IMG/VR virus record: IMGVR_UViG_2869970738_000004 | Origin: a virus | Taxonomy: Duplodnaviria; Heunggongvirae; Uroviricota; Caudoviricetes | DNA length: 35,320 nt | Reading direction: 5' to 3' (one strand) | In this document: positions 142-35,320 of the stretch, in pieces | Layout of the letters: every line of letters begins with the position of its first letter | Numbering within the stretch: position 1 is the stretch's first letter | Program-made: the position numbers and the translations under genes | Notes under the pieces: generated by a model | Told to the model about the DNA's origin: nothing | Database searches by the model: none | What the model saw: only the letters and a program-made list of their open reading frames with translations

Positions 142-492
142 AGCGCTTGCTCCTTTTTCGGGGAGGCGCTAACCTATCACTTGCTTAGGGTAGACGGTTA
201 GGGCCTCGGTTAAACAAAAATGTTTTCCGGGGCCTTTCCACATCTGGCCTTCAGGTATTCCCTCCGACCATCAGCCGAAAGGCACCCGCGCGTAATCTAT
301 CGCTTTTTTGTTACTCCGGCAATTCTGCTCGTTAATTCTGAGGTAAGGGCAAACTCATCTGATTGTTTCCTCTGTGTGAAGTTGGCAGTTCATGCCACGG
401 GTAGACTGGCCCCCTGAATCTCCAGACAACCAGTATCACTTAAATAAGTGATAGTCTTAATACTAGTTTTTAGACTAGTCATTGGAGTACAG

Positions 493-858
493 ATGATTGA
501 TGTCTTAGGGCCGGAGAAACGCAGACGGCGTACCACACAGGAAAAGATCGCAATTGTTCAGCAGAGCTTTGAACCGGGGATGACGGTCTCCCTCGTTGCC
601 CGGCAACATGGTGTAGCAGCCAGCCAGTTATTTCTCTGGCGTAAGCAATACCAGGAAGGAAGTCTTACTGCTGTGGCCGCCGGAGAACAGGTTGTTCCTG
701 CCTCTGAACTTGCTGCCGCCATGAAGCAGATTAAAGAACTCCAGCGCCTGCTCGGCAAGAAAACGATGGAAAATGAACTCCTCAAAGAAGCCGTTGAATA
801 TGGACGGGCAAAAAAGTGGATAGCGCACGCGCCCTTATTGCCCGGGGATGGGGAGTAA
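493..858 (+). CDS. insC: IS2 transposase OrfA (InsC)
   Basis: Track ORF 448-858; recognised InsC sequence begins [26 protein letters not shown] at ATG 493. Confidence 0.9.
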
Positions 859-1721
859 GCTTAGTCAGCCGTTGTCTCCGGGTGTCGCGTGCGCAGTTGC
901 ACGTCATTCTCAGACGAACCGATGACTGGATGGATGGCCGCCGCAGTCGTCACACTGATGATACGGATGTGCTTCTCCGTATACACCATGTTATCGGAGA
1001 GCTGCCCACGTATGGTTATCGTCGGGTATGGGCGCTGCTTCGCAGACAGGCAGAACTTGATGGTATGCCTGCGATCAATGCCAAACGTGTTTACCGGATC
1101 ATGCGCCAGAATGCGCTGTTGCTTGAGCGAAAACCTGCTGTACCGCCATCGAAACGGGCACATACAGGCAGAGTGGCCGTGAAAGAAAGCAATCAGCGAT
1201 GGTGCTCTGACGGGTTCGAGTTCTGCTGTGATAACGGAGAGAGACTGCGTGTCACGTTCGCGCTGGACTGCTGTGATCGTGAGGCACTGCACTGGGCGGT
1301 GACTACCGGCGGCTTCAACAGTGAAACAGTACAGGACGTCATGCTGGGAGCGGTGGAACGCCGCTTCGGCAACGATCTTCCGTCGTCTCCAGTGGAGTGG
1401 CTGACGGATAATGGTTCATGCTACCGGGCTAATGAAACACGCCAGTTCGCCCGGATGTTGGGACTTGAACCGAAGAACACGGCGGTGCGGAGTCCGGAGA
1501 GTAACGGAATAGCAGAGAGCTTCGTGAAAACGATAAAGCGTGACTACATCAGTATCATGCCCAAACCAGACGGGTTAACGGCAGCAAAGAACCTTGCAGA
1601 GGCGTTCGAGCATTATAACGAATGGCATCCGCATAGTGCGCTGGGTTATCGCTCGCCACGGGAATATCTGCGGCAGCGGGCTTGTAATGGGTTAAGTGAT
1701 AACAGATGTCTGGAAATATAG
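816..1721 (+). CDS. insD: IS2 transposase OrfB (InsD); normally expressed as InsCD by -1 frameshifting
   Basis: 301-aa ORF with integrase-core transposase sequence (…[37 protein letters not shown]…); overlaps insC in -1 frame. Confidence 0.9.
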
Positions 1722-1732
1722 GGGCAAATCCA

Positions 1733-1928
1733 ACGGGATGCCCTCTGATGAGTGAATGGGGGAGGCGTGCTTTGAAGTGAATTTGTGGAAGGCTTCCAGT
1801 GTTGAGAAACATACGCCGCATTCTAGATTGTTACACTGATAATACTTTTGTCTCACGGTGTTTGAATCATTTTCCGGACGACTGGTGCGGATACGGGCAG
1901 ATGCGCCACAAAGCGGACAACGGAACAT
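1733..1928 (-). pseudogene. ogr: Ogr/Delta-family zinc-finger late-gene activator, interrupted by IS2 at about codon 66; remaining 3' codons lie at 332-396
   Basis: N-terminus MFRCPLCGASARIRTSR…YYQCNNLECGVCF matches the Ogr C-x2-C…C-x4-C zinc-finger pattern; the track ORF tail [12 protein letters not shown] is read from the IS2 right end; reading across the TSD restores an 86-aa frame ending …IPWHELPTSHRGNNQMSLPLPQN. Confidence 0.75.
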
Positions 1929-2063
1929 AGCGACCTCTCTTATTGTAGTGCTTGCACTATTCTAGGTTGTATTCTCTAAGATTTAAACATGACTTTCTCT
2001 ATATAATGATTTTTAGCATTAGTTAATAAACGAACGGCACTCTAAGGAGCGCCGTCAAAGATA

Positions 2064-5000
2064 TTATTCTGATGTCACTCTTTGCGAGTGAGCTATTTTT
2101 AAATCAGCGTTTCCTTCAAATACTACATTCAACTCATAGTTAAGAGTTAGCTTGAATTTATCTGAGTCACTTTTGATATTCTCTGAAGTGACATTTACTA
2201 ACTTATTATTATCATATTCTCTAATAATTAATTTAGTGAAGTAGTTATCCTTTACCACAAGAGAAAATGGTTGATTAACAAATGGTAAGAAGTAAACCTT
2301 ACGGGTACCGGATTCAGTAGTTATGTTCATAGAGCCATCATCATTTTTTCTCATTAGTTCTCTGAGGTTGGGATTATCGAAAAGCATACGATTATATTGC
2401 TGAAAGATCTCTTTACTCATCACAAGAACCAGTTTGCCAGCCAAGTCAGCAGATGATTTTATGTGATCAATCAACATATTGAAATCTTCTATTACGGTAT
2501 GTTGCGAACAGCCAGTGCTAAATAAATTTGAAAGTATTATTCTCTGGATGTCCTTGAGAATTAAGTCTGCTTGAATATCACCTTCATTGATATAAGGGAT
2601 GGATTCTATTCCTTCGGCATACGGTTCTTTATCTATCTTAATAGATATCTTATGTTTTGTGAAACAATCGCTAGCCTGCTTAAAATCAATAGATTTGAAA
2701 AGTGAAAGAGGGAGCGTTTTCTTGATGCGTTTACGAAGATGTTCTGATGTTTTACGTGCAGTGCTATCTAGTCGATGTACATCTATGGCAGCATCCTGAA
2801 GTCTCATATCAAGATCTTTCTTTAGCATGTTAATATGCTCTTGAAGCAACTTTCTTAAGTTTTCTTTTTTTGTTTGGAGATCGTCCAATGTTAAAGTCAG
2901 CTTGATTTTAGTATATTCGATGGAGTTACAAATTTTTGATAATACTCCAATGAGTCGTTGCTTCTCACGATATGTTATATAGTTGTTTTCTATTGCTTCT
3001 TTTATTTCTTTTGATACGCTATCGTTCTTGTTAGGAAAAATTAATAATAGCTGAACCCATGATTGTTCCATATCAATAAATCCACAGTCAAAAACATTAC
3101 TGTAAACTCTGCCCATCACCATGTCTGTTTTATCATAGTCACGTAAACGCCTTGCTAAACTATTCATCCACCCATTGTGTTCCATATTTTCAGACCATGT
3201 CCACAGGCAGATTCTAATTAATATCTTGATTAGTTGGCTTGCATTATCAATTTCTTCAGTGGGAGTTTCATATCCACCGGTTTGGTCAATAAGTTTACCC
3301 TCTAAAATAAGTTTAATGTAATGTGTCATTAGTTTGTCAGAAGTATTGATTCTTGATGTCAGATAAAGACATGTGCATATACGCATGTCAGTCAACGCAT
3401 TTATGATGGCAATATTGAACCACTCTCTGTCTGAATTGAAGTTTAGTTTTTTGGATATGAAAAAACCCGGGTTAAAAAGCTGGCCTTTGTAACTGTATTT
3501 TTCTACCGAATGGCTGTCAATATTCATTGAGTGCTGCCATCGGTTAATAAGATCGACGGCTGTATCAATAGTAGAAGGATCGCGAGTCTGTGTTGCATCA
3601 ATAATCATCGATGGAAGTTCTTGTAGTTGCGTTTTGCAAAATAATTCAAATAAATCTGAATTCTCTGTATTGCAGAAACGAAAGTTTATGCTTTCTTGAT
3701 ATTGCTCCCAAACAGTGGTATAGGTTCTTAATATACGATTATAACGTGAACGAAGCGAGGCATTTAAGAGTGATTGGTTGTTTCGGAACCATTCTGTTAA
3801 TATTGACCATTGTGAACGAGTAATTCCCATATAGATACAAAGTTCATTGCTGATAAGATGTTTTCTATTATTGATAATACGCACTCCGCTCCAAAGACAT
3901 AATTCAAAAAATCTTTCAGAAAGATTAATTTTATCCATGGAATTATTTGATATTTTATAAACTTCATCTGAAAACTCATATTGAAAACTCCGTTCAAATA
4001 ATTCTGTAGTGATCAGTAAGAAGTTATTGTTGGTATTATCATCTTGAAAAAAATACAAATCGCAGAGATTATTAAAGTTATTAATTAATGCAGAGATAGC
4101 ATTGTCAAAACTAATGAGATCAGAATCCCGCAGATACATATACGTATCTGCTGTTATAGCCTGCATTGTAAGACTTACGGAAAAATCTCCTCCTTTAATC
4201 GGAGCCCTATAAAAACATTGCTTAAGTATTTTTATTAATAAGCTGTCTGGTTTGATATTTTTAACGCTAAAAAGTATCTTACCCGTGGATTCTGTTTCTT
4301 TTGTACGATTATCACCAATGACAAATGACGCAAAATGATTCTTCTTTTTTAGTTGGTAATTAATAAGATTAAGAGTAAGTTGAAAAGGACGGTGATATAA
4401 ACTTAACTCATCTTCCTTAGAATAACTGCTAGCCACAGATATGTATTCTCCTTTGTAATCGGCTTGCTTGATTTCTAAATTTGAATAGTTATGTTTTTGA
4501 TAGATAGGGTATAACCTAAGCTTGGCTGAGATTTTGTTACAAATATGGGGCATTACTATTTCGAAGGCAATGTATCGCTTTATAATTATTTGCCGTTTTA
4601 CATCATCAAGAATTTCAAGACTCACGATAAAGAACCAAATAGAAAGAACTATGTTTATCAAAAGCCATAATATGCTGATTAGACAAGCTATACCATAAAG
4701 ATAACTTCCAAAGACAGTTTTAATTAGTACACTGAGAAGTATAAATCCTGATAAGAAAAGCCCGCTGAGTCCAGCAAGCATGAATCCTGAGTAACGCTGA
4801 TAAGCAGTTTGGGCTATTTTTCTATCTGCCTTTTTTTGGAATAAGATACTTACTAAACCTATAACAAGGGGGTATACAATACCAATAATTGTCAATTGGC
4901 CACTTAAAATGGTTGTTTGCCATTCGGTTAATGAATGCCTAAACGGGAAATAATGTAAAAGATTATTTTTTATAAATAATTCGTTTAAATATCCAACATA

Positions 5001-5183
5001 AAGTAGTACAAATGAAAAAGCTGATATGCAAAGTACTGATTTAACCGGTGAGGATGTTAATCTTATGATGTTTTTTTCAATAAAATTCCATTTTAAATTC
5101 GAATAAAATGGATTTTTAACCATTTTATTACGAACATAGTTCTTTGCTAAAATCTCTGTTGCACTTAAAAATTGTCCAATCAT
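2064..5183 (-). CDS. Hypothetical 1039-aa membrane-anchored protein, AT-rich accessory gene between D and ogr; candidate defence/abortive-infection factor
   Basis: Single uninterrupted ORF; nucleotide composition clearly more AT-rich than flanking phage genes; four hydrophobic helices at about residues 49-190 followed by about 850 aa of Asn/Lys/Ile-rich soluble sequence; no canonical Walker A (GxxxxGK[ST]) seen. Confidence 0.8.
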   Translation of the reverse strand: MIGQFLSATEILAKNYVRNKMVKNPFYSNLKWNFIEKNIIRLTSSPVKSVLCISAFSFVLLYVGYLNELFIKNNLLHYFPFRHSLTEWQTTILSGQLTIIGIVYPLVIGLVSILFQKKADRKIAQTAYQRYSGFMLAGLSGLFLSGFILLSVLIKTVFGSYLYGIACLISILWLLINIVLSIWFFIVSLEILDDVKRQIIIKRYIAFEIVMPHICNKISAKLRLYPIYQKHNYSNLEIKQADYKGEYISVASSYSKEDELSLYHRPFQLTLNLINYQLKKKNHFASFVIGDNRTKETESTGKILFSVKNIKPDSLLIKILKQCFYRAPIKGGDFSVSLTMQAITADTYMYLRDSDLISFDNAISALINNFNNLCDLYFFQDDNTNNNFLLITTELFERSFQYEFSDEVYKISNNSMDKINLSERFFELCLWSGVRIINNRKHLISNELCIYMGITRSQWSILTEWFRNNQSLLNASLRSRYNRILRTYTTVWEQYQESINFRFCNTENSDLFELFCKTQLQELPSMIIDATQTRDPSTIDTAVDLINRWQHSMNIDSHSVEKYSYKGQLFNPGFFISKKLNFNSDREWFNIAIINALTDMRICTCLYLTSRINTSDKLMTHYIKLILEGKLIDQTGGYETPTEEIDNASQLIKILIRICLWTWSENMEHNGWMNSLARRLRDYDKTDMVMGRVYSNVFDCGFIDMEQSWVQLLLIFPNKNDSVSKEIKEAIENNYITYREKQRLIGVLSKICNSIEYTKIKLTLTLDDLQTKKENLRKLLQEHINMLKKDLDMRLQDAAIDVHRLDSTARKTSEHLRKRIKKTLPLSLFKSIDFKQASDCFTKHKISIKIDKEPYAEGIESIPYINEGDIQADLILKDIQRIILSNLFSTGCSQHTVIEDFNMLIDHIKSSADLAGKLVLVMSKEIFQQYNRMLFDNPNLRELMRKNDDGSMNITTESGTRKVYFLPFVNQPFSLVVKDNYFTKLIIREYDNNKLVNVTSENIKSDSDKFKLTLNYELNVVFEGNADLKIAHSQRVTSE

Positions 5184-5431
5184 GAATTACTCTTCTATAA
5201 AGTGTGGGTCTACTAACTAAACTGGAACTTTTACTATTGAGTCATATTCCCTTGGACGGGATGGACTGTGAAGATTATACTTGACTTCCTCTGTCATGTG
5301 GGAAAAACATCCGTATTATTGTTAGCATCTGGTTGATGCCCCAACCTCTGACATCTAGTGGGCTGATACATTATCTTTTGTTCTTACTGTCAGTGTAGAA
5401 GCACATCTCAAAAATAATATTTTTAAGAGAT

Positions 5432-6541
5432 TTATTCTGTTTCTGCTATCCATTCCGGGATTTTTGCTTCAAGTTCAAGCTGCGTGGTAAAGCCGCTGTT
5501 ATCAATGGTGTGCTCGGCTTTTGCAATAATCCAGTCCTGATAATCAATCTCGCTTTTAAAGCCTGTCACTGTGCCATGCATTTCGGGATAGAGTTCTGCA
5601 CGACCACGCGCCAGTGTGATGGAAAATGATGCGGCTCCGCGTTGTAGCTGCTGCCACTTTGCCGCCGCTGCGCGTCTTGCTGCCTGCTCGTTCTGATAAG
5701 TCTTGCGTAACACAAACACGTTGCCTTCCGCACCTTCCATATAGTCGCCTTCCCGACTGCTGCTTTTCTCCTTTTTGGGTTTTGGCGGTTTGCGGCGTTT
5801 CACGCTGACTTTTTTCTTTTTCCCGTAATTAAGATCAAGCCAGTAGGCGCGTACCCCCGTATACGCCTCGCGGTCAGCAATGCGGAACTGATGGCGATCG
5901 CCGCTGCTGCGTGTAATGGCGAACGAGGGCAACGGCTGCCCCTGTGCGTTCACGCCACCACCTGGCATGATGAATAACAGATTGCCGCTTTTTACCGTGG
6001 CGATTGCTCCCAGCATTTCCGCCATGCGCGTAAGAAAGGACATGTCGCTTTCTTCGGTCTGGTCGGCGTGGTCGATTTCGATATCCATCAGCATTTCGCT
6101 GATTTGCGGTTTCAGACCGTATCGATGAGCGATGGCGGATACCACACGCTCAACGGTCACATCATGCCAGGACACCTCACGTTTAACGTTAAATTCATCC
6201 CGAAAATCTGCGCTTCTGGCTGAAACAGTCAGCCTGTCCGGCGGTCCTTCGTGAGCGATTTCATCAACAATGTAAGTGCCTTTTTCTGTCAGCGGTTCCC
6301 CTTTCCAGCCAATGAGAACCGTCAGACGCGCGCCCCGTGGCGGTAGCTGCAACTGACCATCCGCATCATCCAGCGTGATGGTGAGCTGGTCCGCCTCAAA
6401 TCCCCGGTTGTCGGTCAGTTACAGGCTCATCAGGCGCTCCGCCACGCCTGACAGCGTTTTACCCTCCGAGAGAATATCAAAATCCGGCATTTTCACGGGG
6501 GCCGTGCCCTGACTGAGCAATTGCATGGTGGTGTCGGTCAT
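5432..6541 (-). pseudogene. D: P2 gpD-like tail protein with in-frame TAA at codon 41
   Basis: ATG at 6541 with GGAGGGAG RBS; frame reads MTDTTMQLLSQGTAPVKMPDFDILSEGKTLSGVAERLMSL, then TAA (6419-6421), then continues in the same frame into the 306-aa track ORF. Confidence 0.8.
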
Positions 6542-6698
6542 CTACTCCCTCCCTGTGCGGCATGGTCGCATGTGCGTGCGGAGGGGGTTACTGCTTTTTG
6601 TTGTCGCCGTGGCGGGAGAACGGCGCAGGGGTGAGATTACGCGCGTGGTGGGTGATGATTGTTGCTGAATCATTTAACGGATACAAGGGGCTGAAGCT

Positions 6699-7883
6699 AT
6701 GAGTGAAACTCGTTTTCATGGTGCCCGTGTTACGGAGAATACCGACCTGGTAACAGCGATTAACGATGTTGATTCCAGCGTTATCGGTATCGTGGCAACG
6801 GCGGATGATGCGGACGCGAAGCTGTTCCCGCTGAACAAGCCCACACTGCTGACCCGCGTCAATGACGTGCTGGGAAAATGCGGGACAACGGGGACGCTTT
6901 ATCGTGCGCTTAAGGCCATCGCAGACCAGGTGAGCACAAAGGTGATCGTCGTTCGCGTGGCTGAACACAAAGAAGAAGACGGAAAGACGCAGGATCAACT
7001 GGTTATCGGTGGTTCTGAGGATGACGGCAGCTATACGGGGATGTATGCGCTGCTTGTTGCAGAGCAGGATGAAAGCATCGGATACCGTCCGCGTATTCTG
7101 GCCGCGCCGGAGCTGGACACGGAGGCGGTAACAAAATCCCTGTGCGTGATTGCAGATAAACTGCGCGCGTTTGTGTATGCCTCATGTCATGGCTGTAACA
7201 CGATGGCCGAGGCAATTACCTACCGCCAGAAATTCAACGAACGTGAGGTGATGCTCTTATGGCCGGACTTCATCGCCTACAACCCGAAAAATGGCAAAAA
7301 CGAAACGTTCCCCGCGCCTGCCTATGCGTGCGGCCTTCGTGCGTACATTGACCATGAACAGGGATGGCACAAATCGCTGTCCAACGTTCCGGTTAAAAAT
7401 GTGCTGGGGATGTCGAGGCATGTGTTCTGGTCGTTGCAGGCCGAAGACAGCGATGCCAACAGCCTCAACAACAAAGAAATCACGACCATTATTCGTCGCA
7501 ACGGGGTCCGCTTCTGGGGTAACCGCACACCGGAAACGAACGCCTACATCTTTGAGGTGTATACCCGAACCGCACAGGTGCTGGCTGATTCAATTGCGGA
7601 AGCGCAGTTTGAAACCATCGACAGTCCACTGACGCCTGCGAATGTGAAGGATGTTATCAGTGCCATCAGGGCAAAACTGGATTCACTGGTGACTGCCGGG
7701 AAACTGATTGGCGCGGAGTGCTGGTATGACGTGGTGGATAACAGCACCACGGATTTACGTCAGGGACGTGTGCGTATTCGCTACAAATATACGCCCGTTC
7801 CGCCACTGGAAGACATGGAGCTTTACCAGACGTTTACTGATGAATACTTTGAACCCGCATTTGCGGTGCTGGGAGGTGCCTGA
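6699..7883 (+). CDS. FI: Tail sheath protein (P2 gpFI-like)
   Basis: 394-aa ORF with sheath-family conservation (…KLRAF.Y…WPDF…QGWHK.LSNV…IRR.G.RFWGNRT…YTPVPPLE…). Confidence 0.9.
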   Translation: MSETRFHGARVTENTDLVTAINDVDSSVIGIVATADDADAKLFPLNKPTLLTRVNDVLGKCGTTGTLYRALKAIADQVSTKVIVVRVAEHKEEDGKTQDQLVIGGSEDDGSYTGMYALLVAEQDESIGYRPRILAAPELDTEAVTKSLCVIADKLRAFVYASCHGCNTMAEAITYRQKFNEREVMLLWPDFIAYNPKNGKNETFPAPAYACGLRAYIDHEQGWHKSLSNVPVKNVLGMSRHVFWSLQAEDSDANSLNNKEITTIIRRNGVRFWGNRTPETNAYIFEVYTRTAQVLADSIAEAQFETIDSPLTPANVKDVISAIRAKLDSLVTAGKLIGAECWYDVVDNSTTDLRQGRVRIRYKYTPVPPLEDMELYQTFTDEYFEPAFAVLGGA

Positions 7884-8359
7884 TGGCTGTGCCAAAACAT
7901 CTTCGCTTTTTTACGCTGTTTGTGGATGGTGAAAACGAAGTGGGTAATGTGACGTCCGTCACTCTGCCTAAGCTGACGCGCAAAACCGACAGCTACCGGG
8001 GTGGTGGCATGATGGGTGCGGTAAGTATTGATCTCGGTCTGGACGACTCCGCGCTTGATGCGAGCTTTGTCATGGGGGCGCAGTTCGTGAGCTGTTCCTT
8101 AAGTATGGCGGCACGATTGACGGCACGCTGCTGCGTTTTGCGGGTGAATACTACACCGATGCAGAAAGCGACCTGTATGAAGTCGAAATGCGCGGACGTG
8201 TGACGGAAATTGATATGGGGGAAGCCAAACAGGGCGAAGCCACATCACACACTTACGCCATTAAAACACCTACTACAAGCTGAGTGTTAACGATCGCCCG
8301 TTGTGGGAGATTGACCTGCTGAACTTCATTTACCGGAAGGACGGGGTAATGACTCCAAC

Positions 8360-8737
8360 TTATTGATAGTGTTTTATGTTCAGATAATGCCCGATGACTT
8401 TGTCATGCAGCTCCACCGATTTTGAGAACGACAGCGACTTCCGTCCCAGCCGTGCCAGGTGCTGCCTCAGATTCAGGTTATGCCGCTCAATTCGCTGCGT
8501 ATATCGCTTGCTGATTACGTGCAGCTTTCCCTTCAGGCGGGATTCATACAGTGGCCAGCCATCCGTCATCCATATCACCACGTCAAAGGGTGACAGCAAG
8601 CTCATAAGACGCCCCAGCGTCGCCATAGTGCGTTCACCGAATACGTGCGCAACAACCGTCTTCCGGAGCCTGTCATACGCGTAAAACAGCCAGCGCTGGC
8701 GCGATTTAGCCCCGACGTATCCCCACTGTTCGTCCAT
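8360..8737 (-). CDS. insB: IS1 InsB reading frame (expressed as InsAB' by frameshifting)
   Basis: 125-aa [51 protein letters not shown]…. Confidence 0.85.
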
Positions 8738-8781
8738 TTCCGCGCAGACGATGACGTCACTGCCCGGCTGTATGCGCGAGG

Positions 8782-9057
8782 TTACCGACTGCGGCCTGAG
8801 TTTTTTAAGTGACGTAAAATCGTGTTGAGGCTAACGCCCATAATGCGTGCAGTTGCCCGGCATCCAACGCCATTCATGGCCATATCAATAATTTTCTGGT
8901 GCGTACCGGGTTGAGAAGCGGTGTAAGTGAACTGCAGTTGCCATGTTTTACGGCAGTGAGAGCAGAGATAGCGCTGATGTCCGGCAGTGCTTTTGCCGTT
9001 ACGCACCACCCCGTCAGTAGCTGAACAGGAGGGACAGCTGATAGAAACAGAAGCCAC
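8782..9057 (-). CDS. insA: IS1 InsA
   Basis: 91-aa [46 protein letters not shown]…. Confidence 0.9.
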
Positions 9058-9225
9058 TGGAGCACCTCAAAAACACCATCATACACTAAATCAGTAAGTT
9101 GGCAGCATCACCGAAGGACGGCAAGGACATTGTGCCCGATCGCATCCGTTCCGCGCTTGGGCTTGGCTGATAAGTAATATGCTGGCGGCGCAGTGCGTCG
9201 CCTCTGACTGAAAAGGAGACAACAG

Positions 9226-13068: not shown

Positions 13069-13098
13069 AAAACCGCTAATGGTCAGATTAGCGGTTTT
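13069..13098. terminator. Perfect 12-bp-stem hairpin between convergent U and invertase genes; likely bidirectional terminator
   Basis: AAAACCGCTAAT-GGTCAG-ATTAGCGGTTTT; T-run follows on the + strand, A-run precedes. Confidence 0.6.
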
Positions 13099-13732
13099 CA
13101 TTTTCCTGAGTCTGCCCGGTTGTTTCTTCAGTCTGTATATCGCCTACAGGGTGATAACGATAAATCGTCGATGTGCCAATGCCGTAAATTATTGCCAGTT
13201 GTTTTCTGTCGTGCCCGTTTTTGATTAGCCTTGCTATTTGCTCATGCTGTTCTTTTGTCAGCTTCGGTCGACGTCCGCCTGTGCGCCCCCTTGCGCGCGC
13301 TGCCGCCAGCCCGGCCAGTGTACGTTCAACAATTAATTCACGTTCCATTTCAGCCAGGGCACCCATCACGTGGAAGAAAAAACGCCCCATTGGAGAAGAT
13401 GTGTCTATGCTGTCGGTCAGACTGCGAAAATTAATCCCTCGCTCCCGTAGTTCCCCGACGAGAGAAATCAGATGTTTCATGCTTCGCCCGAGGCGATCCA
13501 GTTTCCAGACAACCAGCGTGTCACCTTTTTGAAGGCGCTTTAAAGCGCGTTTTAATCCCGGTCGGTCTGTCTTTGTCCCGCTTAATTTATCTTCAAATAT
13601 TTGTTCACATCCTGCACAAACAAGAGCGTTTCGTTGCAGGTCTGTATTGTTGATACCCTTACATAGCCAATCAGCACACTGAATCTCCCGTCCAAAAGCG
13701 CAAATCATGCCATGCAGGCCAGAAACGGCCAT
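13088..13732 (-). pseudogene. Gin/Pin/Cin/Hin-family serine DNA invertase, N-terminal frameshift separating the catalytic-serine motif from the body
   Basis: Body matches invertases (…NTDLQRNALVCAGCEQIFEDKLSGT.TDRPGLKRAL…HTH); the motif LIGYVRVST is encoded in a different frame from NTDLQ, consistent with a 10-bp deletion between short ATA repeats. Confidence 0.8.
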
Positions 13733-13756
13733 TATTTAAAACCTCGGTTTACAGGA
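13731..13756. other. gix/cix-like invertase crossover site (distal)
   Basis: TTATTTAAAACCTCGGTTTACAGGAA abutting the invertase start; shares the core ACCTCGGTTTAC with an inverted copy at 17965-17990. Confidence 0.65.
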
Positions 13757-13781
13757 AACGGTAAACAGGGCTGGTAACGCC

Positions 13782-14618
13782 GTGCAAAAAAATGGCGATA
13801 CCTTGTCCGGTGGGCTTACTTTTGAAAATGACTCAATCCTTGCCTGGATTCGAAATACTGACTGGGCGAAGATTGGATTTAAAAATGATGCCGATGGTGA
13901 CACTGATTCATACATGTGGTTTGAAACAGGCGACAACGGCAATGAATATTTCAAATGGAGAAGCCGCCAGAGCACCACAACAAAAGACCTGATGACGCTG
14001 AAATGGGATGCACTAAATATTCTTGTTAATGCTGTCATTAATGGCAGTCTTGGAGTTGGTTCGACGAATGCGTTAGGTGGTAGCTCTATTGTTCTTGGTG
14101 ATAATGACACCGGATTTAAACAGAATGGAGACGGTATTCTGGATGTTTATGCTAATAGTCAGCGTGTATTCCGCTTTCAGAATGGAGTGGCTATTGCTTT
14201 TAAAAATATTCAGGCCGGGGATGGTAAAAAATTCACGCTATCCAGCTCCAACAACTTCACAAAGAATGCAACGTTTAATTTATGGGGTGCTTCAACCCGT
14301 CCAGTAGTTGCAGAGTTAGGCGATGAGGCAGGATGGCATTTCTATAGCCAGCGAAATACAGATAACTCGGTAATATTTTCTGTTAACGGTCAGATACAGC
14401 CCAGCAACTGGGGGAATTTTGATTCACGCTATGTAAAAGATGTTCGCCTGGGTACGCGTGTTGTTCAATTGATGGCGCGTGGTGGTCGTTATGAAAAAGC
14501 CGGACACGCAATTACCGGATTAAGAATCATTGGTGAAGTAGATGGCGATGATGAAGCCATCTTCAGACCAATACAAAAATACATCAATGGCACATGGTAT
14601 AACGTCGCACAGGTGTAA
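13782..14618 (+). CDS. Alternative tail-fibre C-terminal (receptor-binding) cassette in the silent orientation; coding continuity starts at the crossover site near 13757
   Basis: ORF ends …[11 protein letters not shown], paralleling the reconstructed end of H (…INGTWYNAGSI); frame is continuous back to the gix core. Confidence 0.7.
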
Positions 14619-14621
14619 ATT

Positions 14622-15150
14622 ATGCAGCATATTAAAAAATATTAAGTCCGGAAATCCAAAAACAAAAGAACAATATCAGCTAACAAAGAATTTTGATGTT
14701 ATCTGGTTATGGTCCGAAGACGGTAAAAACTGGTATGAGGAAGTAAATAACTTTCAGGACGACACCATAAAGATTGTATACGACGAAAATAATATTATTG
14801 TTGCCATAACCAAAGATGCCTCAACGCTTAATCCCGAAGGCTTTAGTGTCGTTGAGATTCCAGATATAACAGCCAATCGTCGCGCCGATGATTCAGGGAA
14901 GTGGATGTTTAAGGACGGAACTGTGGTTAAGCGGATTTATACAGCAGACGAACAGCAACAACAGGCCGAATCACAAAAGGTCGCGTTGCTTTCTGAAGCT
15001 GAAAGCGTTATTCAGCCACTGGAACGCGCTGTCAGGCTGAATATGGCGATGGATGAGGAACGCACACGACTGGAGTCATGGGAACGCTACAGCGTTCTGG
15101 TCAGCCGTGTGGATACAGCAAATCCCGAATGGCCACAAAAGCCTGAGTAA
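14622..15150 (+). pseudogene. Tail-fibre assembly protein (alternative copy) with +1 frameshift in an A6 run at codons 5-7
   Basis: ATG at 14622 reads MQHIKKY then stop; the homologous body ([17 protein letters not shown]…) is in the next frame; the paralogue on the other strand reads [22 protein letters not shown]. Confidence 0.6.
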
Positions 15151-15155
15151 AAATT

Positions 15156-15175
15156 AAGGCCCAATATCGGGCCTT
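15156..15175. terminator. Hairpin between the two convergent tail-fibre assembly genes
   Basis: AAGGCCC-AATATC-GGGCCTT. Confidence 0.5.
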
Positions 15176-15178
15176 CTC

Positions 15179-15712
15179 TCATTCTGGTTGTTCGGGAAAC
15201 GTTACTGGCAGGCTGGAGGTGTCTGTAGATTCGACTTTCTGCGCATAGAGCATCCACTCGGTTAATTTTTGTTTATTCTCGTCGGAAATGATGCCCAGCC
15301 GTAGCTGTGAGTCCCATAGCTGGGTTTTATCCCTGACAAGTTGCAACAGGCTTTGCTTTTCATTTTCCGCTTGTTGCCTCTGCTCTTCCTCGGTATAAGT
15401 TCGCTTTATCACTACGCCATCTTTGAACAACCATTTCCCCGAAATATCAGCCCGGCGATTTGCTGTAATATCAGGTAATTCAACGACGCTTGCGCCTTCC
15501 GGATTAATTGCTGAAACATCCTTTTCAATACAAATAATAACGCCGTTATGGTCATAGACCATTTTCAAAGTGTCTGGCTGGAAATTCTTTTGCTCCTCAT
15601 ACCAGTTTTTTCCATCATCTGAATAAAGCCATTTGATGTTAAATTGCTTTGTTAGCTGGTATTGCTCTTTTGTTTTAGGGTTGCCAGCAGTAATGTTTTT
15701 TAAGTGCATCAT
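15179..15712 (-). CDS. Tail-fibre assembly protein (P2 gpG / Mu U-like), expressed orientation
   Basis: 177-aa [23 protein letters not shown]…; start 2 nt after the reconstructed H stop. Confidence 0.85.
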   Translation of the reverse strand: MMHLKNITAGNPKTKEQYQLTKQFNIKWLYSDDGKNWYEEQKNFQPDTLKMVYDHNGVIICIEKDVSAINPEGASVVELPDITANRRADISGKWLFKDGVVIKRTYTEEEQRQQAENEKQSLLQLVRDKTQLWDSQLRLGIISDENKQKLTEWMLYAQKVESTDTSSLPVTFPEQPE

Positions 15713-25927: not shown

Positions 25928-26203
25928 GTGGCTTCTGTTTCTATCAGCTGTCCCTCCTGTTCAGCTACTGACGGGGTGGTGCGTAACGGCAAAAGCACTG
26001 CCGGACATCAGCGCTATCTCTGCTCTCATTGCCGTAAAACATGGCAACTACAGTTCACTTACACCGCCTCTCAGCCCGGTACGCACCAGAAAATCATTGA
26101 TATGGCCATGAATGGCGTCGGATGTCGTGCCAGTGCACGCATTATGGGCGTTGGCCTCAACACGATTTTACGTCACTTAAAAAACTCAGGCCGCAGTCGG
26201 TAA
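25928..26203 (+). CDS. insA: IS1 InsA
   Basis: 91-aa ORF. Confidence 0.9.
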
Positions 26204-26247
26204 CCTCGCGCATACAGCCGGGCAGTGACGTCATCGTCTGCGCGGAA

Positions 26248-26625
26248 ATGGACGAACAGTGGGGATACGTCGGGGCTAAATCGCGCCAGCGCTGGCTGTT
26301 TTACGCGTATGACAGGCTCCGGAAGACGGTTGTTGCGCACGTATTCGGTGAACGCACTATGGCGACGCAGGGGCGTCTTATGAGCTTGCTGTCACCCTTT
26401 GACGTGGTGATATGGATGACGGATGGCTGGCCACTGTATGAATCCCGCCTGAAGGGAAAGCTGCACGTAATCAGCAAGCGATATACGCAGCGAATTGAGC
26501 GGCATAACCTGAATCTGAGGCAGCACCTGGCACGGCTGGGACGGAAGTCGCTGTCGTTCTCAAAATCGGTGGAGCTGCATGACAAAGTCATCGGGCATTA
26601 TCTGAACATAAAACACTATCAATAA
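26248..26625 (+). CDS. insB: IS1 InsB reading frame
   Basis: MDEQWGY… portion of track ORF 26122-26625. Confidence 0.85.
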
Positions 26626-26805
26626 GTTGGAGTCATTACCCGCCGTGCGTAAGGTGAAAACACCGGGCGGCTTTATCACTTACGAAACGGACCGAGCGAG
26701 GGGGATCAGCCACGGCGACCTTGCGTGGGTAACCATGCTTGCTGTCATTAACGAACCGATTGGCGGCGAAGGAGAAAACGAGCGTTTCACGGTTATGGAG
26801 TTCTG

Positions 26806-27863
26806 ATGAGCAGAAAAAATAAAAAAGTGCGCATGAGTTCACGCATTGATCTCGCTGATGCGCTCAGGAAAGAATCATCGCTCAGTGCATTCACATTTGA
26901 TGGTCCTTATCGCCTGACCGGGCATGACCTGCTGGACAATATGTACTGTGCTGATAACGGGCGGTGGTATGAACCCCGGTGGACTGGTACGGTCTGGCAA
27001 GAGCTGCCCGGCAAACGTCTTGGCATCAGTCTGCGCTTTACTTTAAGCGCAATGTATTGCTCGGTTGCTACATCCCGCACCCGCTGCTTTCCCGGTAGGA
27101 TTTCTCGGCGCTGGCGCTGGCGCTGGCGCTGGACTGGTTTGTGTTCGGTAACGCATTCCTTGAGCTTCGAAGCAATATGCTCGGCGAACCGCTTAAATTA
27201 CGGCACGCCCTGGCGAAATACATGCGACGCGGAAGCGATCTTGAATCATGGTGGTATGTGCAGGATGGCAAGGATGCGTTTCAGTTTCGCCCAGGCAAAG
27301 TGTGTCACCTGATGAATCCTGACATTAACCAGGAAATCTACGGCATGCCGGAATATCTCGGCGCATTACTCTCGGCCAGCCTGTCTCATTCGGCGGACAT
27401 GTTCAGAAAACTGTATTACGACAACGGATCCCACGCCGGGTGCATCATCTACATCGGTGCCGCGCAGGTAAACCGCGAAAGCATGGACTCCCTGAAAGAA
27501 ACGCTACAGGGTGCGCGTGGTGGTGGTGCGTTTAAAAACGTGCTCATTCATGCGCCCAACGGGGGCAAAGAGGGGGTGCAAATTTTGCCGTTCCAGCAGA
27601 TCACCGCAAAGGATGAGTTCATGAATGTTAAGGCGGCATCCCGTGATGATGTGCTGGCTGCGCACCGCGTTCCGCCGCAACTGATGGGGGCGATGCCGGG
27701 TGAAAAAAGTGCGTTTGGTGATGTGGAGAAGGCCGCGCGGGTTTACGCAATTAACGAGCTGATGCCCGTCATGGAGGCCATGAAGCACATCAATGACTGG
27801 CTTGGCGAAGAGGTGATCCGCTTTAACCCTTACGCACTGTTAGACATCCAGCCCACATCCTGA
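26806..27863 (+). pseudogene. Q: Portal protein (P2 gpQ-like), frameshift at about 27095-27125 next to a (GCGCTG)4 repeat
   Basis: Two overlapping track ORFs (26806-27312 and 27141-27863); the downstream portal frame (…ALALALALDWFVFGNAFLE…AAHRVPPQLMG…) is closed upstream by TAG at about 27097. Confidence 0.8.
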
Positions 27864-28353: not shown

Positions 28354-28944
28354 TCAGGTGTTATTTTTATCTGTCGTCAGTGGGCTAAACCATCCACAAT
28401 TTACATCGCATGACTGATGCGTTCTGTCCTCGTGTTTCTCCTGCCACAATGCTTTTCCGCCAGCCTTTATGATGGCTCTTTCAACATCCCGCTCGTATCG
28501 CAAGGGCTGAAATACGTCATTAATGAAATATTCGCTTATGTCCGGAAGCGATACTGCAAAATTATTTGTTTGTTGCGCCGTCCTGCTATGCAGCAAAGCG
28601 GCATGCTTTAATGCGTCCTGTGCTTTCTGGAATTTAAGTGCATAGTCAGTGGCGATTTTTTCCAGTTCAGCGATTCGGTTGTCTTTGGTTTCCAGCCAAT
28701 CAAGTAGCGCCAATACTTCAGGATCCCCGACATCCAACACTGTTACGCGTGATTTTTCATAATGTTCGTCAGCAAGAGTTCGGCCAATTTTGAAATCTCC
28801 ATCATCACCATAACCGGAGCAGGCATAAACAACCTGTGCTCCAGATATTCGCTGAATTGACATTTCCTCGCCGCAAATAGGGCATTTCGGTACTGGCACA
28901 GGTGAATAACGTTCACGTAATGCCTGATAGTTGATTTCGCTCAT
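28354..28944 (-). CDS. Hypothetical 196-aa protein with N-terminal zinc-ribbon (CPICGEE…C.G) and central coiled-coil; possibly ead/Ea22-like
   Basis: Single ORF with GGAG RBS; family assignment from recollection only. Confidence 0.55.
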   Translation of the reverse strand: MSEINYQALRERYSPVPVPKCPICGEEMSIQRISGAQVVYACSGYGDDGDFKIGRTLADEHYEKSRVTVLDVGDPEVLALLDWLETKDNRIAELEKIATDYALKFQKAQDALKHAALLHSRTAQQTNNFAVSLPDISEYFINDVFQPLRYERDVERAIIKAGGKALWQEKHEDRTHQSCDVNCGWFSPLTTDKNNT

Positions 28945-34342: not shown

Positions 34343-35320
34343 ATGAGCATAAAATCAATTCTGGGAGGGTATCTTCTTGACATGTGCCCTGAGGGGCGTA
34401 AAGGCAAACGCATTCGCAAAAAATTTAAAACGAAATCGGATGCAGTTTTATATGAGCGGTGGGTGCTGGCGCAACAGCATAACAATGAGTGGAAAGGAAA
34501 CTCTATTGATCGCCGTCCTCTGTCAGTGCTTATTGACTTGTGGTGGAAATACCACGGCCAGCTAATGAAGTCAGGGCATAACACGCGCCTTAAATTGCTG
34601 CGCTTGAGTGAAGCAATGGATGACCCGTGCGTGCATAAACTTAATACAACGATGCTCACCGAGCTACGTGTGTCCAGGATAGAGCAGGGGATACAGCCCA
34701 GCACCATAAATCGAGAGATTGGGGCGTTAAGCGCGATGTTTACCGCACTCATCTCATCCGGCCATTTTCTTAACGATAACCCCGTTCAAGGCCTTAAAGG
34801 AATGAAGGTTAAGGAGCGCGAAATGGGATATCTGAGTAAGTCTGAATGTGTTCAGTTGCTGGATGCACTGGCTGAAAATCCCGATGAACGACTGGCTGTC
34901 GAAATCCTTCTGTCGACCGGGGCGCGATGGGGCGAGGTAGCGGCACTGGAGCAGCGCCGTGTTCTTCATTGTCGAATCACTTTTTCAAAAACGAAGAACA
35001 GCAAAAACCGTACCGTTCCTATTTCTGAAAGCCTGTTTGAAAAGATCAAAAAACGGGGCGGGAAACTGGTGTTTCCGACGCTGGATTATTCATTGGTTCG
35101 CGATGTCATCAAAACGGTCGCACCTGATGTTCCTGACGGCCAGGCTGTTCATGCGCTGCACCACACCTTCGCCAGTCATTTCATGATGAACGGCGGCAAT
35201 ATTCTGACGCTCCAGAAAATTCTGGGGCACGCAAAGATTCAGACAACGATGATTTATGCCCATCTTGCGCCGGATTACCTGCAGGATGCGGTGAGGTTTA
35301 ATCCACTAGGAGGTGCTTAA
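34343..35320 (+). CDS. int: Tyrosine integrase (P2 Int-like), complete; stop codon is the last 3 bases of the window
   Basis: 325-aa ORF with the conserved C-terminal catalytic region (…LLSTGARWGE…HALHHTFASHFMMNGGNILTLQKILGHAKIQTTMIYAHLAP…). Confidence 0.9.
   Translation: MSIKSILGGYLLDMCPEGRKGKRIRKKFKTKSDAVLYERWVLAQQHNNEWKGNSIDRRPLSVLIDLWWKYHGQLMKSGHNTRLKLLRLSEAMDDPCVHKLNTTMLTELRVSRIEQGIQPSTINREIGALSAMFTALISSGHFLNDNPVQGLKGMKVKEREMGYLSKSECVQLLDALAENPDERLAVEILLSTGARWGEVAALEQRRVLHCRITFSKTKNSKNRTVPISESLFEKIKKRGGKLVFPTLDYSLVRDVIKTVAPDVPDGQAVHALHHTFASHFMMNGGNILTLQKILGHAKIQTTMIYAHLAPDYLQDAVRFNPLGGA

Follow-up and report, generated by a model that had tools for sequence, protein, structure and literature searches.

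A variable slot of a P2-like prophage carries a membrane-anchored protein with a predicted capsid-like domain: a candidate single-gene defence protein

In a P2-like prophage carried by Shigella boydii, the interval between genes D and ogr is occupied by a separately acquired gene for a 1039-aa protein that combines a conserved block of four putative transmembrane (TM) helices, an alpha-solenoid-like region and a C-terminal domain predicted to adopt the HK97 fold of viral capsid proteins. Taking the predicted fold and the genomic context together, we tentatively propose, at a little short of an even chance, that it is an undescribed single-gene, membrane-anchored protein of defence against phages (or mobile elements), in which the capsid-like domain would engage with the assembly of phage capsids.

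The features discussed here are collected in Table 1, with coordinates in the window, by which we mean the whole 35,320-nucleotide stretch of DNA that was analysed. The original prediction had the borders and 1039-aa length of the ORF exactly right on recheck; the ORF begins with ATG on the minus strand, and its product is identical to WP_134810297.1 of Shigella boydii, which the database labels 'MFS transporter'. The flanking genes, both on the strand of the ORF, had been named as gpD and ogr, and Pfam matches agree; gpD is here a 306-aa ORF that lacks the N-terminal ~60 positions of the profile, and the 3' end of ogr is interrupted by IS2. When the window is compared by BLAST with the empty site of E. 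coli STEC1589, homology extends up to position 1969 and resumes from 5436. The leader upstream of the gene contains no ORF longer than 32 aa and has no Rfam match, nor does it show a significant fold (z-score -1.1); a hidden partner in the insert was accordingly rejected. A promoter scan returned 23 sites against the 16 +/- 4 expected in such AT-rich DNA, and no promoter is claimed.

Table 1. Features of the insert, its borders and the encoded protein (window coordinates)
Feature	Coordinates	Strand	Remarks
Inserted cargo segment	1970..5435	.	~3.47 kb, GC 0.33; gain relative to the empty D-ogr junction
1039-aa ORF	2064..5183	-	ATG start
gpD (tail/late control D)	5432..6352	-	Phage_GPD PF05954, E 1.8e-16; left border of slot
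ogr	1692..1928	-	Ogr_Delta PF04606, E 4.2e-14; right border of slot
AT-rich leader of insert	5184..5435	-	252 bp
Terminator-like hairpin	2033..2056	-	8 nt past the stop codon; 10-pair stem with 6 GC pairs, T-rich tail
Putative four-TM block, residues 47-196	4596..5045	-	Hydropathy, model helices, conservation
Small beta-rich subdomain (predicted), residues 226-335	4179..4508	-	Model secondary structure (m8422b84064f3)
Putative cytoplasmic all-helical (alpha-solenoid-like) region, residues 336-700	3084..4178	-	
Conserved low-confidence loop, residues 686-700	3084..3128	-	Motif (M)VSGRxYSG; pLDDT <50; R692 invariant
Helical segment (predicted), residues 701-824	2712..3083	-	Long paired helices 766-797 and 802-820, ahead of the capsid-fold domain
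Predicted HK97-fold (capsid-protein-like) domain, residues 825-1039	2067..2711	-	F829 invariant

The composition of the ORF is foreign to the prophage: its GC is 0.328 (GC3 0.296) as opposed to 0.526 in the remainder of the window, and in a 500-bp profile GC falls to 0.31-0.35 only across 2001-5500, so that the expectation of a gene more AT-rich than its phage flanks is upheld by computation. In many E. coli prophages the D-ogr slot is empty and the two genes are adjacent, with a gap of 42 bp, as had been supposed for the state without an insert; elsewhere at least five alternative fillings were seen, including a PIN protein, DUF3800 and a YecA-like protein. The gene is thus not universal at this position in related prophages, the slot being either empty or filled with other cargo, and this presence/absence and replacement between the conserved core genes D and ogr marks the interval as a hotspot. 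A variability hotspot covering the D-ogr interval has also been reported (10.1101/2024.10.15.618418). The empty sites and the alternative cargo support the suggestion of a separate horizontal acquisition, and we regard the 1039-aa gene as cargo that came on its own into a site of variable content in this P2-like prophage. No PADLOC model matched the other cargos of the slot, which is not proven to be defence-specific. DUF3800, which is often found near homologues as well as being an alternative filling, was considered as an obligate partner and rejected, since it is absent from the insert in the window and from several other contexts.

The argument from intactness fared less well. The gene had been described as one of the few long ORFs to remain intact, and as kept so by selection, but the tape measure (947 aa), tail fibre (570 aa) and sheath (394 aa) genes are also open, other complete genomes carry truncated copies of the 1039-aa gene, and dN/dS relative to the nearest allele is ~0.44 from only 33 substitutions, which indicates purifying selection that is weak and poorly sampled.

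Four hydrophobic segments lie within residues 47-196, close to the span of 49-190 in which about four TM helices had been foreseen, and the model has helices at 46-66, 85-116, 134-158 and 160-190, at a pLDDT of only 54-80. This block is the most conserved region of the family, with P105 and N177 invariant and Q96, G138, S140, W173 and F184 conserved at 90% or more. Lysine and arginine residues number 7, 5 and 7 in the N-terminus, loop 2 and the segment after TM4, and 2 and 1 in loops 1 and 3; because of this distribution, the positive-inside rule suggests an N-in/C-in topology, and the protein is probably an inner-membrane protein with four TM helices. It is hard to reconcile such a molecule with the MFS transporter of the RefSeq label. 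Only the name speaks for a transporter, but Pfam and NCBIfam gave the protein no match at E<=1, neither it nor 31 relatives matched an MFS (e.g. PF07690) or other transporter family there at thresholds as loose as E<=10, and there are four TM helices rather than ~12 in two six-helix bundles, with ~80% of the protein soluble; we give this reading practically no weight.

In the all-helical region that follows the beta-rich subdomain, the conserved positions, W, R, D and E among them, are F359, N387, W492, E493, W549, N595, D599 and R657. Beyond it lies the Rx4H string RKTSEH, previously placed near residue 790 as a hint of a HEPN-type RNase effector. The string does exist, at residues 810-815 (window 2739-2756), but it is not conserved, as among the 32 closest relatives neither an R nor an H is invariant, or nearly so, at any position between 724 and 829; with no match to a HEPN family, and with the region modelled within the long helical pair that leads to the HK97-like domain, a HEPN nuclease is vanishingly improbable. 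The protein also lacks a GxxxxGK[ST] motif, in keeping with the earlier view that it has no Walker A, and a P-loop NTPase defence protein (KAP/PifA, STAND or ABC-type) was rejected on this ground and for want of a PADLOC or Pfam match.

Residues 825-1039 form, in the predicted model, a complete domain that resembles several independent HK97-fold structures at the level of fold, and we predict that this domain has the HK97 capsid-protein fold. The statement in the original prediction that no domain could be recognised therefore holds for sequence families, none of which matched, and fails for structure; the capsid-fold domain, the most informative feature of the protein, was missed in that earlier reading. 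At the sequence level, the domain has no link to any capsid or encapsulin family (Phage_capsid, Linocin_M18, P2 capsid etc.). Its profile found no capsid match among PDB sequences, Pfam searches over 24 domains gave nothing consistent, SU10_MCP was matched in only 2 of 32 full-length relatives (E 0.16), and alignment with the prophage's own capsid ORF gave an hhalign probability of 0.1. HK97-fold domains could also act merely as an oligomerisation scaffold. The protein might then still be a defence protein, in which pentamer- or hexamer-like rings would gather 20-24 TM helices into a channel while the alpha-solenoid or the GRxYSG loop would sense infection through a trigger unrelated to capsids. 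We regard this as quite unlikely, since the HK97-like domain shows low conservation within the family, which is easier to reconcile with a recognition surface that diversifies than with an oligomer interface that stays fixed.

The protein is not the orphan it was taken for. Its full-length relatives, of fixed architecture, make up ~500 clusters at 50% identity in Gammaproteobacteria and beyond: one database yielded 183 clusters at 90% identity and another, by exhaustive profile search, 501 representatives at 50% identity. A word-indexed profile search returned the same 183 proteins, and the family was widened only by the exhaustive search and by a third search with distant members. Family members are present on 378 plasmids, with enrichment on conjugative ones, where most of the enterobacterial copies lie, and no homologue was found among 50,697 phage records. 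That the protein is undescribed was, however, borne out by profile searches, in which Pfam, NCBIfam and PADLOC gave no known family or defence system and PHROGs only a chance-level match (0.015). PADLOC-DB v2.0.0, the scope of which includes Kiwa, Zorya, CBASS 4TM effectors, PD-T4/T7/lambda, and PDC and HEC candidates, returned no family at E<=1 for the protein and only scattered single-member matches (E>=0.012) for 32 relatives, which when scanned against Pfam, NCBIfam, PHROGs and PADLOC gave nothing consistent. The full-length profile found no match among PDB sequences, and literature and accession searches turned up no account of the 1039-aa protein, nor of any defence protein that couples a capsid fold to a membrane anchor.

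Eleven genomic contexts of the gene were sampled and, in this small, hand-picked set, eight are mobile-element or defence-type islands. On plasmids and in islands the neighbours of homologues include CBASS, PifA, PDC-S06, PDC-S15, a ThsB-like TIR protein, a HerA/SIR2-like pair and R-M genes, with strong PADLOC matches among them; a PifA homologue adjoins a family member in Pectobacterium, and recognised defence systems adjoin the gene in most of the sampled enterobacterial contexts. In the remaining three, from V. cholerae, Shewanella and Acinetobacter, the gene is solitary among housekeeping-type genes. No conserved partner gene was found in the 11 contexts, as anticipated for a single-gene system.

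The three solitary chromosomal copies speak for a non-immune role, in which the membrane protein would serve a mobile element or be specific to certain strains. It might, for example, form a shell or lattice attached to the membrane (the facet of an encapsulin-like compartment), or be a factor in plasmid or prophage maintenance or exclusion, or an agent of envelope remodelling. So do the enrichment on conjugative plasmids, the failure of any defence model to match, and the encapsulins, which are non-viral HK97-fold proteins with metabolic roles and one of which, in family 3, bears a 4-5 TM extension (PMC8346489). Nevertheless, there is no cargo-enzyme operon and no conserved neighbour, the gene is patchy, strain-variable, foreign in composition and located in a prophage hotspot, and recognised defence systems adjoin most of its sampled enterobacterial copies, so that we consider a non-immune role rather unlikely. 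An encapsulin system as such, in which the cargo enzyme is encoded beside a separate shell gene, was rejected, as no neighbour is conserved in the 11 contexts.

From this context we infer a function in defence, with the capsid-like domain as the putative sensor and the TM block as the putative effector. In the mechanism that we propose, the ~850-residue cytoplasmic part, an alpha-solenoid followed by the HK97-fold domain, would be anchored by the four TM helices, and the capsid-like domain, possibly together with the solenoid, would engage, in the cytoplasm, the intermediates through which an infecting phage assembles its capsid, candidate partners being capsomers built from the major capsid protein, the scaffold, the portal or the prohead protease. 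Engagement would be coupled to the conserved four-TM module, and either oligomerisation would be driven such that the membrane is compromised (abortive infection), or procapsid assembly would be tethered and poisoned at the membrane. Several observations weigh against the defence proposal: the fold is predicted and has no capsid link in sequence, three of 11 contexts are housekeeping-type, the other cargo of the slot matches nothing in PADLOC, the family is absent from 50,697 phages, truncated copies occur, purifying selection between the closest alleles is weak (omega 0.44) and the TM block is modelled at a pLDDT of 54-80. It is tempting to speculate further that the protein is an immune receptor for which a viral capsid protein was exapted. 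Tethered to the membrane, its HK97 fold would act as a decoy that co-assembles with capsid subunits, or is taken for one by the head-assembly machinery of the infecting phage, and would then poison procapsid assembly at the membrane or open a four-TM pore. We place this bolder idea rather on the improbable side; such a receptor would parallel, in bacteria, those restriction factors of animals that derive from capsids or are directed at them (an Fv1-like logic), and would have been spread by plasmids and prophages over Gammaproteobacteria.

Outside viruses, the HK97 fold is known essentially from shells (encapsulins, gene-transfer agents and satellite capsids), and its fusion with a solenoid and with a four-TM module that is conserved would, if true, put the commonest of viral folds to a new use. 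If phages are indeed restricted at capsid assembly, a new sensing principle would be at work, namely mimicry of a viral protein by an exapted capsid domain. The plasmids, prophage hotspots and defence islands that carry the family belong to Enterobacteriaceae and Vibrio of clinical importance, and prediction of host range for phage therapy would also be affected, as PADLOC models, Pfam and NCBIfam miss the family and RefSeq mislabels it as an MFS transporter. The proposal lends itself to direct testing, since only one gene is involved and it brings its own leader and terminator.

Among known systems, HK97-fold major capsid proteins and encapsulins (e.g. HK97 gp5, lambda gpE, T4 gp24, and the T. 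maritima and P. furiosus encapsulins) share 4-12% identity with the protein and no profile similarity; here the predicted fold accounts for only the last fifth of an inner-membrane protein of 1039 aa, with no head-gene or cargo-enzyme neighbours. SaPIbov5 Ccm is a satellite-encoded capsid-protein homologue that redirects capsid assembly of the helper phage, but it is a soluble protein of ~260 aa in a satellite packaging module, lacks a TM block and solenoid, and has no detected sequence relation to the 1039-aa protein. PifA of the F plasmid, responsible for T7 exclusion, is likewise a single membrane-associated protein, plasmid-borne; phage proteins trigger it, the T7 capsid protein among them, and the outcome is membrane damage. 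It is, however, a KAP-type NTPase, whereas the 1039-aa protein has no P-loop and no PADLOC match to PifA. A four-helix membrane module is also the conserved working part of the defence systems CBASS (S-4TM effectors) and Kiwa (KwaA), but these are multi-gene systems, and the protein matches neither PADLOC's models for 4TM effectors and Kiwa nor the S-4TM model of NCBIfam. SNIPE, a membrane-bound nuclease defence of E. coli (10.1101/2025.11.03.685801), is also a single-gene, constitutively membrane-anchored system in E. coli, although its nuclease domain acts on injected DNA and no nuclease or SNIPE-like family was found in the 1039-aa protein. CapRel(SJ46) reportedly senses the major capsid protein (10.1101/2022.05.30.493996), as do other capsid-sensing defences, and in the proposal made here this protein would likewise be a molecular pattern that is sensed; CapRel differs in being a fused toxin-antitoxin with a pseudo-ZFD sensor, and has no capsid-fold domain or membrane anchor. 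Family-3 encapsulins of Mesorhizobium with a C-terminal 4-5 TM 'MFS' extension (PMC8346489) are alike in architecture, in that an HK97-fold domain is joined to a TM bundle of few helices for which databases use the name MFS; their domain order is the reverse, they have no solenoid, and they occur in biosynthetic gene clusters of another taxon.

The 1039-aa protein encoded between gpD (D) and ogr, in which the original prediction recognised no domain, ends in a predicted HK97 capsid fold. In an AlphaFold2 model of the whole protein, built from a 32-sequence alignment (mean pLDDT 79, pTM 0.65) and outlined in the table, this fold is assigned to residues 825-1039. Foldseek searches against predicted viral structures provided independent support, with 88 matches at E<=1e-3, the top ones being annotated major capsid proteins (best E 9.4e-8, probability 1.00). 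The order of elements, as read from the secondary-structure string and not from a residue-level superposition, also fits HK97 topology: a hairpin (831-851), a long helix (869-889), helices (901-943) and long C-terminal strands (1009-1032). We regard the fold as a confident prediction, cross-checked twice. At the sequence level no link to capsids emerged: a profile of the domain found no capsid sequences in the PDB, Pfam gave nothing consistent for it, and an hhalign comparison with the P2-type capsid ORF of the prophage itself returned a probability of 0.1. The same prediction would also suit a mere oligomerisation scaffold inside a defence protein, a reading that we consider rather improbable.

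The claim of a membrane anchor holds, with four hydrophobic segments between residues 47 and 196, as does that of a missing Walker A motif. Lysines and arginines number 7 at the N-terminus, 5 in loop 2 and 7 after TM4, whereas loop 1 has 2 and loop 3 has 1; by the positive-inside rule, this distribution suggests that the N-terminus would be cytoplasmic, as would all 850 residues of the C-terminal part. Phage heads assemble in the cytoplasm.

Features of the protein, the prophage and the D-ogr slot in related prophages (L002-L005, comparison loci)
Feature	Coordinates	Strand or position	Evidence or remarks
Four TM helices, then long helix exiting membrane			AlphaFold2 model
Small beta-rich subdomain	residues 226-335		AlphaFold2 model
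All-helical region	residues 336-700		AlphaFold2 model
Low-confidence loop with conserved (M)VSGRxYSG	residues 686-700		AlphaFold2 model; motif at window 3084-3128
Paired long helices	to residue ~820		AlphaFold2 model
Alpha/beta domain	residues 825-1039		AlphaFold2 model
1039-aa ORF	window 2064..5183	minus	ATG start
gpD (Phage_GPD)	window 5432..6352	same strand, upstream of 1039-aa ORF	PF05954, E 1.8e-16
ogr (Ogr/Delta zinc-finger protein)	window 1692..1928	same strand, downstream of 1039-aa ORF	PF04606, E 4.2e-14
Terminator-like hairpin	window 2056-2033	3' of 1039-aa ORF stop codon	
IS2 copy, 1331 bp	window 402-1732	in ogr 3' end	5-bp target duplication
ogr remainder	window ~332-401	hok-proximal	
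Tail-tube (FII-like) ORF	window 7883..8203		only 106 aa
InsB and InsA ORFs, presumably of IS1	window 8360..8737 and 8782..9057	minus, after FII-like ORF	
Resolvase/invertase gene	window 13088..13732	minus	PF00239, E 2.9e-43
Three short ORFs (167, 168, 240 aa)	window 26122-27863	plus	consecutive or overlapping
Ead/Ea22-like protein	window 28354-28944		E 2.1e-32; in local GC dip
Phage integrase ORF	window 34343-35320		extends past right end of window
Slot: 356-aa PIN-domain protein	L002 4281-5351		
Slot: 389-aa DUF3800 protein	L003 4429-5598	opposite strand	
Slot: hypotheticals of 141 aa and 105 aa	L004 4346-6347		
Slot: 379-aa YecA-family protein	L005 5419-6558		

The protein, identical to WP_134810297.1, 'MFS transporter [Shigella boydii]', is not the orphan it was first taken to be. 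A word-indexed search found 183 clusters at 90% identity in Enterobacterales, and when 1.84 billion representatives were searched exhaustively with an HMM, 501 matched at E<=1e-3 (340 at 1e-10), nearly all of them 1030-1150 aa long and aligned over their full length. The named members belong to Vibrio, Shewanella, Pseudoalteromonas, Photobacterium, Psychromonas, Acinetobacter, Oleispira, Sedimenticola and Desulforhopalus; each is labelled 'hypothetical' and lacks any Pfam domain. Scans of the protein against Pfam, NCBIfam and PADLOC profiles gave no match and PHROGs a chance-level one only; 32 relatives scanned singly shared no consistent match, and a family profile found no relative among PDB sequences. 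The transporter label, which spreads through the close clade (WP_134810297.1, WP_264716223.1, Pantoea/Erwinia relatives) without domain support, gives way to 'hypothetical protein' in distant clades (RefSeq/UniRef); with no domain match behind it, we reject the MFS transporter reading as most improbable.

Conservation is centred on the TM block, where mean pairwise identity is 27% versus 17-18% in residues 197-335, 701-824 and 825-1039; P105 and N177 are invariant in 51 sequences with identity down to 14%, and Q96, G138, S140, W173 and F184 are kept at >=90%. A second conserved set lies in the middle region (F359, N387, W492, E493, W549, N595, D599, R657, G691, R692, Y694). R692, invariant in the family down to 14% identity, belongs to the (M)VSGRxYSG motif, which falls in the model's one extended low-confidence loop, just ahead of the helices leading into the capsid-fold domain, and is a candidate hinge, cleavage or docking site. 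The Rx4H string (RKTSEH, at residues 810-815 and not ~790) is not conserved among relatives, so the suggested HEPN nuclease can be set aside with near certainty. The argument that the gene is kept intact by selection is also weak: some complete genomes have truncated copies that fall into its 90% cluster (391 aa in S. flexneri, 98 aa in E. coli), and the omega of 0.44 against a 98.4%-identical E. coli allele comes from 33 differences, 12 synonymous and 21 non-synonymous (0 and 5 in the HK97-like domain, numbers too small for a test). The real evidence for function is that the architecture is conserved from end to end over ~500 clusters.

The ORF lies exactly where predicted and is as AT-rich as claimed, with a GC content of 0.328 (GC3 0.296) versus 0.526 for the rest of the window and a 500-bp profile that falls to 0.31-0.35 across 2001-5500 only. 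In E. coli STEC1589, the same prophage at the same chromosomal site, adjoining ihfA, has a D-ogr gap of only 42 bp; as homology to the window ends at 1969 and picks up again at 5436, the insert is 1970-5435, immediately 3' of the stop codon of D and 41 bp 5' of the start of ogr. It contains the 1039-aa gene alone. The 252-bp leader, in which no ORF exceeds 32 aa, neither matches Rfam nor folds significantly, and since promoter-like matches do not exceed the expectation for AT-rich DNA, no promoter is claimed. In keeping with the proposed cargo, the gene fills this slot in only 5 among 5,426 complete E. coli genomes; the slot is empty in many others (visible as a ~1158-bp D+ogr span) or holds a PIN, DUF3800 or YecA-family protein, or hypothetical-protein pairs with or without an IS3-family element, in prophages at several chromosomal sites (ihfA, flk, tRNA-Leu cluster). 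The D-ogr interval is therefore a genuine replacement hotspot, and one spanning it is reported in 10.1101/2024.10.15.618418; the classical ones are old/tin and Z/fun (10.1101/2024.10.15.618418; 10.64898/2026.02.27.708500). No PADLOC model matched the PIN, YecA-family and hypothetical fillings at 1e-5, and these may be further uncharacterised hotspot cargo.

Other features of the prophage deserve mention. In P2, D/ogr and FI-FII-E-T-U are collinear, whereas in the window lineage, at several chromosomal sites, D-cargo-ogr lies on the opposite strand (window 5432-7883; loci L001-L005, L019, L029). D has its full 369 aa in strain RIVM_C040348; in the window, as in most E. coli copies, it has 266-306 aa and is overlapped by a partial pseudo-CDS. 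The final ~13 codons of the 78-aa ogr ORF are IS2-derived. Because the short tail-tube ORF is followed by what we take to be IS1 ORFs, the tail module appears broken at ~7883-9100, which fits a defective prophage in a Shigella genome. In a patch of lower GC content, the resolvase/invertase adjoins cassettes for tail-fibre C-termini and tail-fibre assembly that face in opposite directions (Gp34_trimer, two Caudo_TAP ORFs), and 13088-15712 resembles an invertible host-range switch of the Cin/Gin type in the Z/fun position. The three short ORFs are probably a frameshifted head or packaging gene, as related prophages have a terminase large subunit annotated within the stretch matching 9000-33000.

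By tblastn, homologues were present in 0 of 50,697 phage records and in 378 of 72,556 plasmids (217 conjugative; mostly Escherichia, Klebsiella, Enterobacter). IncF plasmids pIP1206 and pM105_mF carry, in this order, HsdR, IS1, a complete CBASS pair (cyclase 4e-152, 4TM effector 1e-165), PDC-S06 (3e-286), VapBC, the homologue and DUF3800; on colicin-M plasmids it is surrounded by an HEC-04/AriA-like ATPase (8e-42), a RES protein, MazE/PIN, pEK499_p136 and a YobI-type ATPase. In Serratia it shares an island with DUF3800 (PDC-M04A), HNH and ThsB-like TIR proteins, in Pectobacterium it adjoins PifA (5e-65) and an integrase, and in a metagenomic element it accompanies HNH, SRAP, PDC-S15 (4.5e-99), DUF3800 and D5 primase. 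The Desulforhopalus copy is in a ParA/DUF932 element together with PP2C, a kinase that weakly matches WYL and an HNH_2 gene that weakly matches the ScoMcrA DNA-binding domain; that of V. parahaemolyticus adjoins a DUF87 (HerA-type) ATPase and a gene that faintly matches SIR2_2; and those of V. cholerae, Shewanella and Acinetobacter are solitary amid housekeeping-type genes. Mobile-element or defence-type contexts thus account for 8 of the 11 sampled, a small, hand-picked set with no background statistic, in which no neighbour gene is conserved. On plasmids and islands, family members repeatedly have a DUF3800 protein no more than a few kb away (loci L011, L012, L014, L027, L028), one of these proteins matching the PADLOC candidate PDC-M04A at 1.9e-21, and a DUF3800 gene also fills the D-ogr slot itself; as an obligate partner DUF3800 is ruled out by its absence from the window.

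The reading we adopt is that the slot gene encodes a putative defence protein, anchored in the membrane and acting as a single-gene system; its capsid-fold domain would make contact with the phage, and its conserved four-TM block would serve as effector or anchor. The cargo is solitary, mobile and patchily distributed in a prophage hotspot, plasmids and defence islands, it joins a conserved membrane module to a fast-diverging C-terminal domain, and its capsid-like domain, predicted to be cytoplasmic, would sit where procapsids assemble; for these reasons we somewhat favour a defence or anti-mobile-element function of some kind and regard the protein as a candidate for it. Engagement of the capsid as the specific mechanism is suggested by precedents: Ccm is an HK97-fold protein that interferes with capsid assembly, capsid proteins act as the trigger of CapRel, and a capsid protein is among the triggers of PifA. 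Even so, we hold this mechanism to be a tentative and on balance doubtful one. A non-immune membrane role also seems to us unlikely.

Our literature search found no description of the family, nor of any membrane-anchored capsid-fold defence protein, and because its sequence and architecture set it well apart from all described systems, we rate it as categorically new. The closest comparable case is a family-3 encapsulin of Mesorhizobium that carries an 'MFS' extension of 4-5 TM helices at its C-terminus; there, however, the order of the domains is opposite and the context is biosynthetic (PMC8346489).
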